A DNA stretch of 61,886 bases from a virus, in the IMG/VR virus record IMGVR_UViG_3300012683_000009; one strand, 5' to 3'. The notes below the pieces were generated by a model. The model made no database searches and had not been told where the DNA came from. It worked only from the letters and a program-made list of their open reading frames with translations. This document shows positions 2,936-47,337 of this stretch, in pieces. The translations under genes and the position numbers were made by a program. Within the stretch, counting starts at the first letter, position 1. Every line of letters starts with the position of its first letter.

Positions 2936-3238
2936 GTCTTACTGCTCCTGAAGTGAGGGGCCCGATGGCCAAGGGAGAGAACTGGAGTTCCCGGACGTGA
3001 GGTGGCATGGTACCCGTCCGGGTGTTCGTCAGAGAAGCAAAAGTTTGGTGTCAAGAGTGATGGAAGGTTAACCGGTACGGGATACCGGGCTCCGCTCGAA
3101 ACGGATGCGCTCCCTCCGGGGAGTGGGCTTCGACTGCTCAACCTTCCGCTTCTGGAGAGTAAACAGCGTAGGTCGCTGGCCCGCCTGCTAAGCGGTGCGC
3201 CCCGAAAGGGGTGTGATTCGAGTTCACTGCTCTCCGCT

Positions 3239-20058: not shown

Positions 20059-22395
20059 ATGATCCCGAACCACAAAGAACGAAACGTTCAGACCTCTGGT
20101 CTGGATGAGCAGGCTGTCTTCGGCATCTCTGCCGACAACCAAGCTCACATCATGACGATCCTCCGTGACACGCTCTACACGGACAAGATCCTCGCAGTTC
20201 TTCGAGAGTACAGCGCCAACGCCTGGGACTCTCATCGGATGAACGGGAAGGACGAGCTGCCCATCAAGGTCACGCTCCCCAGTCCGGCAGAGCCGACTCT
20301 CGCCATCCGTGACTTCGGTCCTGGCCTCACGCAGGAGGAAGTCTTCACCGTCTTCACTCAGTACGGAGCCAGCACCAAGAGGACCACCGACAAGGCCGTC
20401 GGAACCCTCGGCATTGGGTGCAAGAGCGGCTTCGCCTACTCCGACAGCTTCAGCATCGACTCGTACAACAACGGGACGAAGAGCACGTACGTGGCGGTGC
20501 TCGACAAGTCAGAGAAGGGCATGATCTCGCTGCTGAACCGTGAACCGTGCGGAGAAGAGTCGGGCCTCTGCATTCAGATTCCGGTCAGGCCCGAGGACAT
20601 CCCGCTGTTCATCGACAAGGCGAAGGGCCTCTTCAGGTACTTCCTCCCGAAGCCGGACATCAACACCGAGGTCGCCGACATGGCGGAGATCTCGATGGAG
20701 ATGAAGACTGGGGTGCTCACCAAGTCTGGCGGCTGGGTGGCGGTGATGGGGTGCATCCCCTACCGCATCAACATCGATCAGCTTCAGGCCATCCGCAGCA
20801 AAGAAGAGGACACCGTCAGCATCAAGAGGTTCCTCTCCGGGCTGAGCGGGCTGCTGTTCTTCAAGATCGGCGAGATCCACATCGTCGCCAACCGAGAAGA
20901 GCTCCGCTACACGAACGAGACCAAGACCGCCCTCGTGAATCGGTTCAACGATCTCATCGAGGAGTACGTCACCTCGGCTCTGAAAGACATCCAGGAGTCC
21001 GGGCTCACCTACTTCGAACGGCGAATGCGCCTCATGAAGTTCGAGGCTCTGAAGTTCGCCATTCCGGAGGTGTTGACGGAGTTCCTGAACCCGAACCTCG
21101 ACGTGAAGCACGTGAAGGACTTCTCCTTCTGCCTGACGGACTACAACCGGCACAAGCAGATCATCGGCAACTCTACAGACACCCTCCACATCCACGACGA
21201 GACCACCCTCGTCCTCAAAGATGACCCCAGGGCGTTCAGTGGCTTCAAGCTCGAAGGCCGCCCATACATCGTCAAGATCAGCCCGAAGCCAGGGAAGAAT
21301 GCAGAGCCCTGGTCGAAGATGATGCCCAAGTTCGAGAAGTTCCTCGAAGAGTACAAGATCACGGGCGTCAAGATCATCAAGCTCAGTGAGTGCGCTTGGG
21401 AAGCTCCGAAACGTGACTACGAACGTGGAGAGGTGAACGAGAAGCACAAGGTCACCACCTTCAAGTTCAACCCTGACTCGCACGGCAGTGGGTCCGATCT
21501 TTGGACCATCACGAAGCACAAGCCGGATGCCGCCGACGTGTTCGTGGTGCTGGAGAAGTTCAAGACCACCAAGAAAAGCACCTACAATCCCACGAGGAGG
21601 GAGAAGTACAGGTTCAGGGACAAGTATCACGAGACGAAGGCTTGGCTGGAGTTCTTCGGCGAGAAGATGCCTGCCGTCTACGGGTACAAGTCGACCGAGA
21701 AGAAACCGGCGTTGGAGAAGGACTTACTCGGTACCGAGTTCATCGAATGGGCTGCTGCGAGGAAGAAAGAGCTCACCGCCAAGGCGGAGATGAATCCCGT
21801 CATCTTGGAGATGGCGGAGATGGTGGCCTGGGACGATCTGGCCGAGGAAATCTACCCGAGCACGAATGAGAACCGCATCGCTTCTGCTCCGAAGCTGAAG
21901 GGGCTCACAGAGGCACTGGGGAAGAACCACCCTCTGGTTGCCGTCCTCGAACCGTACGTCGAGGCAGAGCTGAAGAAGAAGGAGTCCTGGTCCGGCTTCA
22001 ACTCCATGGAGAGCTTCATCGTCTCCAGCCAGGCACTCTGCAAGATGAAAGACAAGGCCCTAAAGGCCTTCCGGAAGAAGCTGACGAAGACCGTCGCCAA
22101 GTACCCATTGCTGAGGTCGGTACAGGGCGGCATTTCGAACCTACTGCGTGACTCGTACCCGCACTGGGTTCCCTACGTGAAGATGATCGACAAGGAGCTG
22201 AAAGATGGAAGCCGAACCGAAGTACACGATGACCAACGAGTCGCTGACCCTGGTGTGGCAGGGCAAGACGCACACAGTCCGGAGCTCACAGCCGAACTTC
22301 GAGAGCCTCCGGCGGGCGATCTCCCAGAAGGACTGGGACAGTATCCCCAAGTTCCTGACGGTCAACAGAACGCTGGGGGAGTGGGCGCAGGGTGA
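20059..22395 (+). CDS. rIIA: rIIA-like GHKL (Bergerat-fold) ATPase; ORF stays open to 22395 but coding signal (GC3) switches to the rIIB frame at about 22205
   Basis: ORF track; N box EYSANAWD, G1 IRDFGPGLT, G2 GTLGIGCKSGF; immediately followed by an rIIB-like gene as in T4. Confidence 0.7.
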   Translation: MIPNHKERNVQTSGLDEQAVFGISADNQAHIMTILRDTLYTDKILAVLREYSANAWDSHRMNGKDELPIKVTLPSPAEPTLAIRDFGPGLTQEEVFTVFTQYGASTKRTTDKAVGTLGIGCKSGFAYSDSFSIDSYNNGTKSTYVAVLDKSEKGMISLLNREPCGEESGLCIQIPVRPEDIPLFIDKAKGLFRYFLPKPDINTEVADMAEISMEMKTGVLTKSGGWVAVMGCIPYRINIDQLQAIRSKEEDTVSIKRFLSGLSGLLFFKIGEIHIVANREELRYTNETKTALVNRFNDLIEEYVTSALKDIQESGLTYFERRMRLMKFEALKFAIPEVLTEFLNPNLDVKHVKDFSFCLTDYNRHKQIIGNSTDTLHIHDETTLVLKDDPRAFSGFKLEGRPYIVKISPKPGKNAEPWSKMMPKFEKFLEEYKITGVKIIKLSECAWEAPKRDYERGEVNEKHKVTTFKFNPDSHGSGSDLWTITKHKPDAADVFVVLEKFKTTKKSTYNPTRREKYRFRDKYHETKAWLEFFGEKMPAVYGYKSTEKKPALEKDLLGTEFIEWAAARKKELTAKAEMNPVILEMAEMVAWDDLAEEIYPSTNENRIASAPKLKGLTEALGKNHPLVAVLEPYVEAELKKKESWSGFNSMESFIVSSQALCKMKDKALKAFRKKLTKTVAKYPLLRSVQGGISNLLRDSYPHWVPYVKMIDKELKDGSRTEVHDDQRVADPGVAGQDAHSPELTAELREPPAGDLPEGLGQYPQVPDGQQNAGGVGAG

Positions 22396-34472: not shown

Positions 34473-34703
34473 TCACTTCTCGACGGAGGAGATGAAGCTG
34501 ATGTTGGTGAAGACGACGTCGTAGGGCTTGAAGACACCCTTCTTCGTTCTCTTGAACGGCCTTGAGGAGCTGACGTTGAGTATGCCGTTCATGACCTTGT
34601 GCTTGCTCTTGATCACGATCTTCTTGCCCTTGTCGTCGACTCCTCGAACGGTGAGCTCTACGACGTTGAAGAGGTTGGGCATCAGGTAGTTCCTGGGGTT
34701 CAT
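34473..34703 (-). CDS. Hypothetical protein (76 aa)
   Basis: ORF 34473..34823 trimmed to ATGA-overlap ATG. Confidence 0.45.
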   Translation of the reverse strand: MNPRNYLMPNLFNVVELTVRGVDDKGKKIVIKSKHKVMNGILNVSSSRPFKRTKKGVFKPYDVVFTNISFISSVEK

Positions 34704-35080
34704 TTCTTCTCCGGAACCTGCGGACGGCCCGAGTAGACACCGATCTGAACGCCTTCCGGAATGAACCCGAGAATGTCGTCCGAGCTCATGATGAAGTACT
34801 TCTTGTTCTGCCCGTCGGGCCACTTCTCATCGACTTCGATGGGGTTGGCGTGCTTCAGGAAGCCTCGGTACAGCACACGAACGTCCTTCGTGATGCCGAG
34901 CTTCTCGTTCTTCTCTCCGGGCCCGACTCGAACGACCCTGCCGGAGCCCTCACTGACGAGCTCAGCGCCGGTCTCATTCGGAGCGAGAATGATGCCCGAC
35001 TCCATCTCCTTCTTCCGTGGCTCGGCGAGCACCACGACCCAGCCGTTCATCGGACGGACCTTCAGAGGATCGAGTTCCAT
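34700..35080 (-). CDS. GroES-like co-chaperonin (Hsp10 family) with C-terminal extension (126 aa)
   Basis: ORF 34700..35128 trimmed; similarity to GroES: PLKVRPMNGWVVVLAEP...ESGIILAPN...GRVVRVGPG and KYFIMSSDDILGFI vs E. coli EVLIMSESDILAIV. Confidence 0.65.
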   Translation of the reverse strand: MELDPLKVRPMNGWVVVLAEPRKKEMESGIILAPNETGAELVSEGSGRVVRVGPGEKNEKLGITKDVRVLYRGFLKHANPIEVDEKWPDGQNKKYFIMSSDDILGFIPEGVQIGVYSGRPQVPEKK

Positions 35081-41898: not shown

Positions 41899-42263
41899 AG
41901 ACGAGCGCACCTGCGGTGGAACTCCGAGCAGTACGGAGCCACCTCAGGTGCAGACTCTCCGCCGCATTCAGGGCAGCCGCCAACAGGCAGGACTACCCCT
42001 CTCTCGGTCGAGTCTCGGATGTCGTCGTGGATCGACTTCGCCACGAGCAAGTGGTGTTTCATCGCTGAGAGAGCGGCCTGGAGAGCTACGCACCACTCCT
42101 TGTTGGTAATGCCGGTCGGTCTCTGGAACATGAGCCAGCCGGCATCGACGTCGCAGCAAATGACGCTCCCGTCAACGGACACTAGGAAGACGTGCCGCTT
42201 CGGGTACTTCTTTGGATCAAGAGCCTCCCGAACTACTTCGGGACCGAGCACGAGGGTTTTCAT
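41895..42263 (-). CDS. Hypothetical Cys-containing protein (122 aa), lone minus-strand gene
   Basis: ORF track. Confidence 0.5.
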   Translation of the reverse strand: MKTLVLGPEVVREALDPKKYPKRHVFLVSVDGSVICCDVDAGWLMFQRPTGITNKEWCVALQAALSAMKHHLLVAKSIHDDIRDSTERGVVLPVGGCPECGGESAPEVAPYCSEFHRRCARL

Positions 42264-42764: not shown

Positions 42765-43146
42765 GGGCCCGACCTGGTTTCGACAGGGACGTAGAGATTC
42801 TTCGCTGCATGCCGAGCTGGCTCACAAGCTCGTAAATCCAAGAGAGCAAAACAACAAAAGCCAACGACAACGTTGAGCTGGCTGACAGCCCGGTTCGCCT
42901 GGCTGCTTGACCCCTGGTCTCGGTAAGCAGGCACCGAGTAGCTGAGACTGGGAAACCCATCCGGTGCTGGGGCTCGTTCAATCCTCAAGAGCGAGTTCGA
43001 GAGTCGTAACAGAGGCGTGCTGCCGAGGTGAGCCTGTCCGGGCTTCGCCCTACTCGGCATCGTCGTACAGAGTGAGAAACGGACTACGCATGTAGAAGTG
43101 ATGAGTCGAAGGTTTCTGGACGAGGGTTCGATTCCCTCCGGGTCCA
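42765..43146 (+). ncRNA. ssrA: tmRNA (ssrA), about 382 nt, with tag reading frame ANDNVELADSPVRLAA-stop (42860..42910)
   Basis: 5' GGGCCCGACCTGGTTTCGACAGGG and 3' ...GCATGTAGAAGTG...GGACGAGGGTTCGATTCCCTCCGGGTCCA align to the E. coli ssrA ends; acceptor pairing 42765-71 with 43139-45 includes a G3-U70 pair; tag ORF ends LAA-TGA. Confidence 0.85.
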
Positions 43147-43159
43147 CTTGGGAGAAGTC

Positions 43160-43327
43160 ATGAAGATTGTGAAGTGCTCTTGCCGGATGTGTCGGCGAGG
43201 GCTGAGAACGAAGTGCACCTCGAAGCTCGTCACGAAGAAGGTGAGAGCAGCGAGGCGTAAGGCGAAGCAAGACCTGAGGGCCGGCAAGGAGCCGGACACC
43301 AAGGTGATGTTGCCGTACACCGACTAG
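43160..43327 (+). CDS. Small basic Cys-containing protein (55 aa)
   Basis: GGGAGAAG RBS; below ORF-track cutoff. Confidence 0.4.
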   Translation: MKIVKCSCRMCRRGLRTKCTSKLVTKKVRAARRKAKQDLRAGKEPDTKVMLPYTD

Positions 43328-43726: not shown

Positions 43727-44578
43727 ATGAACGAGCCCCAGGCGAAGTTGATCGACCTGCTGAAGCAACGGCAGGAGCAGTTGAAGTACCTCGGCACTCC
43801 GCCTGGGACCGTGAGCGTTGCCATCGCTCCAAGTCAGGCCGAGATGCAGGTGATGGCTCAGGTCGCAGATGAGCCACCAGAGACCTTCTTCTACGCCAGG
43901 AACCAGACGGAGATGTCCCTGGCCCAGGAGTCTCTCGTGGCTTGGGCCACTACAAAGGTGAGAGCTCTCAGGAAGGAGCTCAAAGAGGCGCAGGAGAACC
44001 TCGACATCGCCACGAAGCGGAAGTGGAAGAAGGGGCCGTTCGAGAATCTCGTACGGAGAGTGTCGAAGAGAGTCACGTTCTACGAGAAGGTCGAAGCTGC
44101 TCTGAAGGCCGGGTACACCATCATCCCGGATATGCAGGCTGACCTCTTCGCCATTCGCACGACGAGAAAGTCCGTGAAGCAGAACAAGGTCAAGGGACCG
44201 TGGTCTCGGCCTAAGCACCAAGAGAGCAACAGCCCTATGATGGGGGAAGGTCGGTACGTAACTCCACAAGGCGAACAAGTCTGGGCCAACGAAGTGAAGA
44301 AACACGAGCCTGGGAAGGCTCCTGAGTACGAGATGGCTCGGTGGGTCGAGGCGCATGACGAGGAGATCGACTTCCCGTTTCGGATGGCCAAGCCGGCGAT
44401 TCTGAACTCCACGGCGCAAGCAATGGCCATGAAGGTCTTCGACGAAATTGGATGCCTTCCTCGATTCCGAGTGCAGGCTGACCCTGTCATCGTCGGGAAG
44501 ATCGTCCTCAAAGAGGGCTACCACACGAAGCGGTTCAACTTCCTCGTCGTATGGTTCATCGACACCAAGGAGCTGTGA
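43727..44578 (+). CDS. Hypothetical protein (283 aa)
   Basis: ORF track. Confidence 0.55.
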   Translation: MNEPQAKLIDLLKQRQEQLKYLGTPPGTVSVAIAPSQAEMQVMAQVADEPPETFFYARNQTEMSLAQESLVAWATTKVRALRKELKEAQENLDIATKRKWKKGPFENLVRRVSKRVTFYEKVEAALKAGYTIIPDMQADLFAIRTTRKSVKQNKVKGPWSRPKHQESNSPMMGEGRYVTPQGEQVWANEVKKHEPGKAPEYEMARWVEAHDEEIDFPFRMAKPAILNSTAQAMAMKVFDEIGCLPRFRVQADPVIVGKIVLKEGYHTKRFNFLVVWFIDTKEL

Positions 44579-45074: not shown

Positions 45075-45164
45075 TGGCCGAGACGTAGGCGGCCTGGTGG
45101 AGGCGGCGGCCCAGAACATCGGGTCGCCTCCCTTTTACTGATCGGTAACACCCAGGAGGGGATC

Positions 45165-45497
45165 TTGAAGTTCACCGAGTCGCTGAAGAAGATCCCAATC
45201 GGGGGAGAAGTGGGTCGACTAGAGAACTCAGGACGGATCTACCCGTGCGTCGTATGTGGGACTCGGACGGGCTGGAGGAATAACGGAGATGGCAGTTGTC
45301 CGGGAGTTCCCTGTTGTAGCGACGAGTGTTTAGATGTGATGGACGAATGGTCGAAAGAGAGCGGTTCGAACACATCTGAAACGAACCGTATCTCCAGCGC
45401 TGAACCCGTTCTTGCGAGGCCAGAGGTGAGTCAGACCCATGAGCGAGAATCGGGCAATGAGGAAGCTGCTGCCAGTTCGGAAGATCCTGCTCGTTGA
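45165..45497 (+). CDS. Cys-rich protein (110 aa), TTG start with AGGAGGGG RBS
   Basis: ORF track. Confidence 0.5.
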   Translation: MKFTESLKKIPIGGEVGRLENSGRIYPCVVCGTRTGWRNNGDGSCPGVPCCSDECLDVMDEWSKESGSNTSETNRISSAEPVLARPEVSQTHERESGNEEAAASSEDPAR

Positions 45498-45846
45498 TGA
45501 TGACGAGCTGATCCGTTCGTTGATGAAGCTCTACATGACCGGGCTCGGCAACTTCGAGTTCTGGGAAGAAGGGAACGGCATGGGTGCTCTCAACCTGACC
45601 CGGCAAGTTCACCCTGACATCATCATCACCGATCTCACCATGCCAGTGATGGATGGAGCGATGCTCACCGCTGAGATCAGAAAAGACCCGGACGAGCTCG
45701 TCCGGAAAGTCCCCATCATCGTCGTCACCGGTGCTGGTGAGGACTTCAAGACCGCCGCCTACAAAGCTGGTGCGAGCCTGGTTCTGGAGAAGCCACTCTC
45801 CAGGAAGACCTTCGCCTCAGCTCTCGAACGGCTACTCCCCAAATAG
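45439..45846 (+). CDS. Stand-alone CheY-like receiver (REC) domain protein
   Basis: ORF track; all REC hallmarks: DD (LVDDDE), phospho-Asp (IIITDLTMPVMDG), T (IIVVTG), K (LEKPL). Confidence 0.75.
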   Translation: MSENRAMRKLLPVRKILLVDDDELIRSLMKLYMTGLGNFEFWEEGNGMGALNLTRQVHPDIIITDLTMPVMDGAMLTAEIRKDPDELVRKVPIIVVTGAGEDFKTAAYKAGASLVLEKPLSRKTFASALERLLPK

Positions 45847-46047: not shown

Positions 46048-47337
46048 ATGGCGAAGAAAGCGGTGCTGGTGATCACGGATCCTGGGATGCCTCCAACGGT
46101 GTTCGTTGTACCGGACGAGGCCCTCAACGAAGGAGACATCAAGAGGCTGAACCGTCTCCTGGAGTACGTCGGCAGCTACGACTTCGACGCCGAGGACTTT
46201 CGGGAGTGCTCCAACCTGAAGGAAGTGCATGACGCACTGATCGAGCAGTTGGGCCTCAAGGACGATGAGGAGGCACCAGAGTTCGATTGGTACCCGGACC
46301 AGAAGCTCGCCGTGACTCGGGCCGAGGTGAAGAAGCGGGAGCTCGAAGAGCACTACAAGAAGTATCCTCACGGGACCGTCACCGGGAGGATGAGTTCGAA
46401 GGATGGCCACTTGTCGAACTTGCCGAAGCCTGGGCCTTCACTTCGACAGGCGGCCAAGAGAGTCGACTTCGGCTCGCCGTCTCCCACGGGACGCTTTCCT
46501 TCAGCGCTCGAACAGCAGCACATCAACCCTTTTCTGAAGACGAACCCCAGAGTCGACGCAGAGTTCAACTTCAACTTCGACTACGCAGAGATCGAGAGGA
46601 GACTGTTCGCAGCCATCGGACCACCCATCGCCAAGATCTATGACGAGTACGTCTTCGAGGTTGCGGACAAGGATGCACCAGCAGCTCGGGAAGCGATGAA
46701 GCAGTTCTGTGAGGAAGTGTTCAAGAACGTCAAGTTCCCCCTCGTTCGAGTCGGCGACTTCACCATGTACGAAGGTGGCGTGGGTCACTGGAAGTCGGAG
46801 AAGTCGAACCTCCAGGAGCTGCCCAAGCACGTCAAGACCCAGAACGGCACGCTCGTGACGATCAACTGGGGCCAGTGCTCACCAGAGTGTGCTGGCTGGC
46901 TCCACATGAACGAGCCGTACGAGATCGAGCAGTGCGACGAGTGCAGGAGGTTCGAGCTGACCCCTGACGGGCACGAAGCAGCACGCAAAGCCCATCGGGA
47001 GGAGTGTGGCTGCGGCTGGCCGGAGTTCGACATCCAGGACGCAGCAATGGCCTGGGTCACAGACCTGATCGAAGACCACGTCATCACGAAGGACGACATC
47101 AAAGAGCTGTCGGACCTTCTCTGCTGCCGTGACACTGAGTTCATGGACAACGTGGTGCCGGCTGTCTACGCCTGCTCCAGGCTCGTGGAGAAGGCAAGGA
47201 GCGCCACCAACCCCAACAGGAACAGCCTCGAAGGTCTGGCGAAGCTCCTCAAGGAAACCCGAGATGGCATCGAGAACGAAACGCTCAAGCTCAAAGACTT
47301 CGGCAGCCCTCCCGGCTCCGAAGAAGAAAGTGACTAG
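46048..47337 (+). CDS. Hypothetical protein (429 aa)
   Basis: ORF track. Confidence 0.6.
   Translation: MAKKAVLVITDPGMPPTVFVVPDEALNEGDIKRLNRLLEYVGSYDFDAEDFRECSNLKEVHDALIEQLGLKDDEEAPEFDWYPDQKLAVTRAEVKKRELEEHYKKYPHGTVTGRMSSKDGHLSNLPKPGPSLRQAAKRVDFGSPSPTGRFPSALEQQHINPFLKTNPRVDAEFNFNFDYAEIERRLFAAIGPPIAKIYDEYVFEVADKDAPAAREAMKQFCEEVFKNVKFPLVRVGDFTMYEGGVGHWKSEKSNLQELPKHVKTQNGTLVTINWGQCSPECAGWLHMNEPYEIEQCDECRRFELTPDGHEAARKAHREECGCGWPEFDIQDAAMAWVTDLIEDHVITKDDIKELSDLLCCRDTEFMDNVVPAVYACSRLVEKARSATNPNRNSLEGLAKLLKETRDGIENETLKLKDFGSPPGSEEESD

Follow-up and report, generated by a model that had tools for sequence, protein, structure and literature searches.

Why would a phage keep a ribosome-rescue RNA of its own, and from which host would it have taken it? 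This question is raised by a 382-nt locus at positions 42765-43146 of the IMG/VR virus record IMGVR_UViG_3300012683_000009, a stretch of 61,886 nucleotides hereafter called the window, in which an initial annotation, made from the letters and without database searches, had placed a complete one-piece transfer-messenger RNA (tmRNA, ssrA) gene. The analysis reported here leads us to conclude, with good confidence, that the locus is a functional one-piece tmRNA gene of a large uncultured phage, which goes back to a single ancient capture of a myxobacterial ssrA gene, was vertically inherited thereafter, and would work with the SmpB, alanyl-tRNA synthetase (AlaRS) and Clp proteases of the host. 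Phage tmRNAs are already well documented; what is new here is a lineage without a phage relative in GenBank, with a likely myxobacterial host and with an extended tag throughout its clade.

ARAGORN called a one-piece tmRNA at 42765-43147 on the plus strand, one of three RNA genes that it found in the window, and the Rfam tmRNA model RF00023 matched 42765-43149 with 151.4 bits (E = 1.3e-59; gathering score, 47) over model positions 1-374 of 374, without truncation. The two programs thus agree on the complete gene that had been announced. Until CCA is added, the mature RNA ends at position 43146, the discriminator A. Both the acceptor stem GGGCCCG/CGGGTCC, with the G3:U70 pair that confers alanine identity, and the T arm GAGGG-TTCGATT-CCCTC, which the initial annotation had described, can be read directly in the sequence, and the tag frame that it had proposed coincides with the one that ARAGORN codes at gene positions 96-146, giving the tag ANDNVELADSPVRLAA. 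Rfam places GCC, with the nucleotides preceding it, on the resume codon of the model at the highest posterior probability, which addresses the refuting condition that the initial annotation had named for the tag frame. The minimum free energy (MFE) fold of the 382-nt RNA (-153.8 kcal/mol, z = -2.53) recovered the acceptor stem, the T arm and the long helix 2. The locus therefore combines a full-length model score, a tRNA-like domain, helix 2 with pseudoknot 1 (PK1) and an internal tag open reading frame (ORF), as expected of a tmRNA, and the specific statements made about it from the letters all hold. It does not resemble an attP-type ssrA fragment: it is full length, and no integrase family was found among the Pfam matches of the window.

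The gene does not encode CCA, and the bases following the discriminator are CTT; the initial annotation had remarked on the same arrangement at the tRNA gene starting at 10926, and CTT was indeed seen after both genes. The CCA must then be added after transcription. None of the six tmRNAs of the phage clade described below encodes it, and myxobacterial tmRNA genes seldom do (11 of 91 unique genes, with CTT a common trailer among them), so that the missing CCA is a host-like trait and not a defect. It is a property of the gene and no ground for excluding it from the RF00023 family.

Related phages carry the gene at the same place. The 283-aa protein encoded downstream of the tmRNA has 83 homologues, several of them on contigs of 100-203 kb, and the neighbourhoods of eight homologues were fetched (L139 to L146). 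Four of these (L139 to L142), in which the 283-aa protein is 58-73% identical, are syntenic with the window, in the order GroES, DUF7352, small ORFs, tmRNA, RyR, 283-aa gene and response regulator, and all four carry the tmRNA at the corresponding place (124.5-159.8 bits in Rfam). On L146, a 195-kb contig with a 39% identical homologue, most of the synteny is lost, and a tmRNA still lies immediately upstream of the homologous gene. These five tmRNA-bearing contigs are 56-203 kb long and come from independent samples; together with the window they make up the clade of six. The 164-kb JGI contig Ga0613662_000094 and the 203-kb contig SRR29078113_21924 are among the relatives. The more distant L143 to L145 carry tRNA arrays of 23-45 genes and no tmRNA within the 20 kb fetched, and the contig of one of them is an IMG/VR viral genome (IMGVR_UViG_3300034358_000044, 195,735 bp).

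The base pairing of the RNA is preserved through sequence change in this clade. RNAalifold, run on the six sequences, predicted 87 pairs, 29 of which show compensatory double changes. In a curated set of 64 pairs (acceptor stem, helix 2a/2c/2d, both PK1 stems, two hairpin systems in the region of pseudoknots 2-4 and the T arm), 94.1% of cells were standard pairs and 23 pairs were changed on both sides. Neither value was reached in any of 500 shuffles, and sliding the partners by 1-3 columns lowered pairing to 28-44% and left 3-5 double-changed pairs. The signal is found along the molecule: acceptor pairs 4 and 6 covary, as do three of the five pairs of the T arm stem, and in both of these stems 100% of cells are paired; both-side changes occur in 7 of the 19 counted pairs of helix 2 and in 3 of the 6 pairs of PK1 stem 1, and in PK1 stem 2 four pairs are invariant and one pair is broken in one sequence. 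Overall, the helices of helix 2 and PK1 are 87-100% paired, with 10 pairs changed on both sides, and the two long hairpin systems in the region of pseudoknots 2-4 have helices 83-92% paired with 8 covarying pairs. The G3:U70 pair is invariant in all six phage tmRNAs and in all 86 host tmRNAs compared, and the D-loop analogue is nearly so in both alignments. In a neighbour-joining tree built on conserved columns, with hosts chosen by tag, the six phage tmRNAs are monophyletic, the nearest non-phage sequences are myxobacterial, and the tmRNAs of Myxococcus phage Mx1 and of other viruses fall outside. Taken together, the conserved locus, the covariation, the tag frame and the tree argue for one ancient capture, after which a working RNA was passed on vertically, and not for a decaying relic or an assembly artefact.

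The likely source of the gene was approached through its tag. A scan of a genome collection with a degenerate coding pattern for ANDNVELA returned at least 120 loci, among which ARAGORN identified 80 tmRNAs with the tag ANDNVELALAA and 8 permuted tmRNAs with the tag ANDNVELAAAA. The listed titles were overwhelmingly those of Myxococcus, Corallococcus, Archangium, Cystobacter, Hyalangium and Pyxidicoccus, or of unnamed metagenome-assembled genomes (MAGs) of Myxococcaceae, Archangiaceae or Myxococcales; a few were alphaproteobacteria such as Magnetospirillum. The best blastn match of the window tmRNA was to a MAG of Archangium, a genus of the phylum Myxococcota (82% over nt 6-118); the last ~70 nt are 73-81% identical to the hosts, and the middle has no similarity detectable by blastn. 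Over the whole tmRNA, the window is 64-66% identical to the hosts, compared to 72-85% among the hosts themselves, and host tmRNAs score 181-187 bits in Rfam against 151.4 for the window. The context upstream of the resume codon, ACAAAA-GCC, agrees with the host consensus. Acceptor pairs 4 and 5 are C-G in the window and G-C in almost every host, and in our reading of the alignment the substitutions that could be traced in helix 2 and PK1 relative to the hosts keep the pairs intact. These comparisons make a member of the Myxococcaceae or Archangiaceae the likely host. The initial annotation had seen in the start of the tag a proteobacterial-type clue to the host; that the tag points to the host stands, and the clue can be sharpened to these two families of the Myxococcota, formerly counted among the Deltaproteobacteria.

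The tag itself departs from that of the hosts in length. The window, L139 and L140 have ANDNVELADSPVRLAA in common, the identical tags differing at the nucleotide level by synonymous changes (GCT/GCA, GCT/GCC), and the tags of L141, L142 and L146 are ANDNVELIDSPVRLAA, ANDNVEAGTMLQAA and ANDNVELSAAPLLAAA, respectively. All six begin with ANDNVE, end with AA and count 14-16 residues, versus 11 in all 86 hosts. In the window, the extension is an insertion of DSPVR between the host-type ANDNVELA and LAA, which was present in none of the 86 host tmRNAs of an 87-sequence alignment; it is conserved in L139, L140 and L141, and L142 and L146 have other extended forms. By hand, we noted that the insertion and the host sequence downstream of the stop codon have the strings ACAGCC and CGGTTC in common and that a CTGGCTG direct repeat flanks the insertion, which is suggestive of the host helix-5 region as a possible source of the 15 nucleotides.

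The window corresponds, on the opposite strand, to positions 1-61886 of an 88,861-bp metagenome contig in the European Nucleotide Archive (ENA; ERZ27253174, k141_1051315), and the neighbouring genes are identical in a second sample, SRR6267154. ORF calling gave 112 ORFs, and 100 proteins were scanned against Pfam, yielding 17 families (among them NT5C, MVP shoulder, AAA, response-regulator receiver, Laminin_G_3, RyR, GroES, GNAT and SNase); 37 PHROG families were matched, including rIIA at 7e-96. Genes for SmpB (PF01668), integrase, ClpP and adaptors were not among the Pfam matches of the 100 window proteins. The tmRNA is taken to lie inside a viral genome, with viral genes on either side, in a co-directional block of small, tightly packed genes whose flanks contain no housekeeping genes. 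Upstream, 7 nt separate it from a stop codon, and downstream, 13 nt separate it from the start codon that follows. On all six contigs of the clade, the tmRNA begins no more than ~10 nt after a stop codon: in the ENA contig a called gene ends at the stop of the 115-aa ORF, and in the four syntenic relatives a called gene ends a few bases before the tmRNA. The 55-aa ORF downstream is 84-85% conserved beside the tmRNAs of L139 and L140 and absent from L141, L142 and L146. Terminator-like hairpins were found at 42192-42207 and 45105-45128. The features of the locus are collected below.

Features of the tmRNA locus and its neighbourhood (positions are those of the window)
Feature	Position	Strand	Basis and remarks
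One-piece tmRNA (ssrA) gene, 382 nt, G1 to discriminator A	42765..43146	+	ARAGORN; Rfam RF00023; sequence
Acceptor stem, 5' strand GGGCCCG	42765..42771	+	Rfam alignment, sequence; pairs with 43139-43145 (CGGGTCC)
D-loop analogue ACCTGGTTTCGA, conserved GG..TTCGA element of the tRNA-like domain	42772..42783	+	High posterior probability against the RF00023 consensus
Helix 2, 5' strand (segments 2a, 2c, 2d)	42784..42812	+	Rfam, MFE fold, covariation; pairs with 43088-43118
Pseudoknot 1 (stem 1 CGAGCT/AGCTCG, stem 2 GCTC/GAGC)	42813..42847	+	Rfam alignment
Tag reading frame	42860..42910	+	Resume codon GCC 42860-42862, 16 codons ANDNVELADSPVRLAA, stop TGA 42908-42910; ARAGORN
In-frame insertion of 15 nt, GACAGCCCGGTTCGC (DSPVR)	42884..42898	+	Alignment columns 127-141 against 86 myxobacterial tmRNAs
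Region corresponding to pseudoknots 2-4, 177 nt	42911..43087	+	Strongly diverged from hosts
Helix 2, 3' strand (GCATG ... GGTTTCTG)	43088..43118	+	Rfam, MFE fold, covariation
T arm GAGGG-TTCGATT-CCCTC	43122..43138	+	Rfam, sequence
Upstream ORF, 115 aa	42410..42757	+	No Pfam match; hydrophobic stretch resembling a membrane segment (read by eye)
Small, very basic, Cys-rich ORF, 55 aa (MKIVKCSCRMCRRG...)	43160..43327	+	GGGAG ribosome-binding site, ATG start; no Pfam match; not called in the ENA annotation
RyR-domain protein, 127 aa	43336..43719	+	PF02026, E = 7e-11; conserved beside the tmRNA in L139-L142
Protein of 283 aa without assigned function	43727..44578	+	83 homologues; synteny anchor for finding related phages
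Stand-alone response-regulator receiver domain	45439..45846	+	Conserved tmRNA neighbour in L139-L142
tRNA-Arg(TCT), no encoded CCA, followed by CTT	10926..10999	+	ARAGORN; Rfam 60.2 bits

The contig is rich in tRNA genes. Just beyond position 1 of the window, the same contig has a dense array of 27 further tRNA genes (L137:13210-20432), most of which share a strand and among which an HNH endonuclease is encoded. This fits the remark of the initial annotation that phage tmRNAs are found chiefly in large phages with tRNA genes of their own. ARAGORN counts at least 29 tRNAs on the contig, one of them not confirmed by Rfam. A tRNA-Ser(CGA) call at 3062-3149 on the plus strand, in an intergenic gap and on the strand opposite to the flanking genes, was considered doubtful, as Rfam found no tRNA there even at E <= 0.01. 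Elsewhere in the window, an 896-aa protein (11127-13817, plus strand) contains the Major Vault Protein shoulder (PF11978, 1.6e-30) and a vault repeat (PF17795, 2.2e-07), a domain unusual for a phage protein, and has no PHROG match; a 778-aa rIIA-like protein is encoded at 20059-22395 on the plus strand (PHROG 612, 7e-96; matches in cultured phages at most ~32% identical), and a GroES (Cpn10) homologue at 34700-35080 on the minus strand.

Searches for closer relatives returned little. Against 50,697 GenBank phage records, there was no DNA match to the tmRNA by blastn or to the surrounding 20 kb by megablast. An exact-pattern scan of IMG/VR for the tag with the start of the insertion gave no match, and a query of IMG/VR with the 283-aa neighbour gave no related loci. 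A scan of JGI metagenomes with a degenerate ANDNVELAD pattern gave 0 matches and evidently missed the sample of the JGI contig L139, which carries a fitting tag.

How, then, would such an RNA act? What is established about trans-translation can be applied to the phage tmRNA step by step. The tmRNA would be transcribed with the flanking small genes as a polycistronic RNA, from which host RNase P and 3'-processing enzymes would excise it, and the host CCA-adding enzyme would complete its 3' end. Host AlaRS would recognise G3:U70 and charge the RNA with alanine, and host SmpB, proposed here because no SmpB was found in the window, would deliver it together with EF-Tu to ribosomes stalled on truncated mRNAs. 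Translation would resume at GCC and append (A)ANDNVELADSPVRLAA, after which the C-terminal LAA, or at least AA, would direct the product to ClpXP-type proteolysis by the host and the ribosome would be released. The likely benefit to the phage would be that ribosomes are kept available during infection and translation continues while the host makes less RNA and its mRNAs dwindle. Given the large tRNA set of at least 29 genes, the tmRNA would fit a general strategy of sustaining translation.

The observations must nevertheless be weighed against other explanations. The RNA could be a real tmRNA-like molecule whose main role is not ordinary rescue: a substitute that evades a host defence aimed at host tmRNA or tRNAs, a competitor of the host tmRNA for SmpB, or the carrier of a tag that alters handling by adaptors and proteases. 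In the last case, the extended tag would be a phage-specific degron, built from the host-type ANDNVE start and AA end with always 3-5 extra residues, which may alter delivery to host proteases or its rate, or may recruit a phage factor; combined with a compensated, non-host acceptor stem, it could enable the phage tmRNA to supplant that of the host, or to outcompete it, during infection. Were this true, the tmRNA would have a role beyond simply adding rescue capacity. The extension is conserved or re-invented across the clade, the acceptor stem of the window differs from that of every host through compensated changes, a lengthened tag and a similar acceptor stem unlike that of the hosts are likewise found in Mx1, an unrelated myxophage, and the phage brings its own large tRNA set. 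Against this, every element that ordinary trans-translation requires is intact, and both ends of the degron are kept; the acceptor stem varies within the clade (GGGTCCG in L141, GGGGCTG in L146), as expected of compensated drift and not of a fixed phage type; tmRNA tags vary naturally in length; and evasion of nucleases is without support. We regard a specialised role as the main alternative but as unlikely, and the phage-specific degron as a similarly doubtful proposal.

Much less probable is a non-functional relic, namely host DNA picked up, for example, by imprecise excision at an ssrA integration site and now decaying. ssrA is a common integration site of prophages, and ssrA fragments occur in prophages (PMC9004378); the central region of the window tmRNA has strongly diverged, and its Rfam score lies below that of the hosts. 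Decay would break the pairing and the reading frame. The gene is full length and not a 3' fragment, no integrase was found in the window, and six diverged phages still have the RNA at this locus, where compensatory changes are abundant, G3:U70 never varies and the tag frame is intact. Least probable of all is that the tmRNA belongs to a bacterial chromosome through a chimeric assembly or a prophage-host junction. The resemblance of its first 118 nt to the Archangium tmRNA would fit such an origin, as would a window in which no capsid or terminase gene is visible. However, both flanks consist of small, packed genes on the same strand, the identity to any host copy is lower than that among hosts, the same gene order recurs in independent assemblies from five other samples, and the GC content of the tmRNA (0.58) fits the contig (0.57-0.62 across the window) and not the host tmRNA mean of 0.62.

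Several points weigh against a functional phage tmRNA of myxobacterial origin. Within the RNA, the region of pseudoknots 2-4 has diverged strongly from the hosts, aligns to Rfam with low posterior probability and contains only putative pseudoknots. No sigma-70-like promoter was predicted near the tmRNA on the plus strand, and the simplest reading, drawn from the operon context, makes the gene part of a polycistronic transcript that would need processing; expression, aminoacylation and the SmpB steps are what we infer, as are processing, the fate of tagged proteins and a fitness benefit. The window contains no clear capsid or terminase gene and only a sub-threshold portal match, so the phage identity is deduced from the genes present, from gene order shared with large contigs and from a single IMG/VR classification. 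As to the origin, the host comparison set was chosen by tag, and the tmRNA is the single source of the host assignment; a phage tmRNA can reflect a former host, as has been proposed for phage Melnitz (PMC9004378).

With a functional, once-captured tmRNA as the preferred explanation, the locus offers a well-supported and evolutionarily tested case of a phage keeping its own ribosome-rescue RNA, in an undescribed clade of large, tRNA-rich phages with related contigs of 110-203 kb, linked to myxobacteria. Few phages of myxobacteria are known, namely Mx1, Mx4, Mx8 and Mx9 (PMC10720576). The conserved tag extension provides a simple experimental handle, as host and phage degrons can be compared directly. 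Tagged peptides would be separable by mass (...AANDNVELADSPVRLAA versus ...AANDNVELALAA) and would reveal which tmRNA acts in infection, a result that bears on why phages carry tmRNAs at all.

The comparison with a cultured myxophage is instructive. Myxococcus phage Mx1 (OR576727.2; 169.6 kb) carries a one-piece tmRNA at 46646-47022 inside a tRNA cluster (RF00023, 117.7 bits). The resume codon of this tmRNA is GUC, and the tag called by ARAGORN is VNTNVFGSQMMAAA. The GenBank record of this model phage omits the gene: its features include no tmRNA, and an overlapping 126-nt coding sequence at 46919-47044 is labelled 'Hef-like endonuclease'. The genome announcement reports 22 tRNA genes and, by text search, has the word 'tmRNA' only in the title of the ARAGORN reference (PMC10720576). 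Mx1 infects a myxobacterium and has a GC content well below that of its host; like the window phage, it is large and has clustered tRNA genes and a one-piece tmRNA. The two tmRNAs are identical over the last 29 nt at the 3' end (T arm and acceptor strand), the Mx1 stem GGGCCTG is similar, and the Mx1 tag is also longer than that of the host and ends with AA. The Mx1 tmRNA is only 61% identical to that of the window, has a different tag and falls outside the clade in the tree. A relationship between the two phages was considered and rejected, as none of the 112 window proteins matched Mx1 by tblastn at E <= 1e-4. The exact 29-nt 3' end, GGACGAGGGTTCGATTCCCTCCGGGTCCA, is also found in unrelated tmRNAs, one-piece and permuted and with differing tags, on five IMG/VR sequences (L004, L005, L007, L008 and L010), several of which have the GGGCCCG 5' end of the window tmRNA as well; all 86 myxobacterial hosts differ there. 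A 'phage-type' acceptor stem GGGCC(C/T)G with the identical 3' 29-mer (window, Mx1, L004, L005, L007) was nevertheless discarded as a lineage marker, since the stem varies inside the clade (L141, L146) and the tree does not group these sequences.

Among isolate phages, tmRNAs were reported in 402 of 18,146 genomes (2.3%; PMC9004378), huge phages carry tmRNAs and sometimes SmpB (PMC7162821), and phage tmRNAs have been proposed to sustain translation during infection (PMC9004378, PMC7162821). The window resembles these systems in having a complete tmRNA and many tRNAs in a large phage, with a tmRNA similar to that of the presumed host lineage; it differs in having no GenBank DNA match and in coming from a clade not described before, whose members have an extended tag particular to them. 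Some huge phages also encode SmpB, and none was found among the 100 window proteins. The 3' fragments of ssrA in temperate phages and genomic islands, with attP/attB at tmRNA genes (Islander database, PMC4383910), are likewise tmRNA sequences on mobile elements. They are partial and accompanied by an integrase, whereas the window gene is complete, has no integrase in the window and has its whole fold under selection. Finally, the ssrA genes of Myxococcaceae and Archangiaceae agree with the window tmRNA in the G3:U70 acceptor stem, the T arm, helix 2, PK1, the GCC resume codon in the same context, the first eight (ANDNVELA) and last three (LAA) residues of the tag and the lack of an encoded CCA, and the window tmRNA is set apart from them by the DSPVR insertion, the swapped acceptor pairs 4 and 5, a dissimilar region of pseudoknots 2-4 and its position in a block of phage genes.

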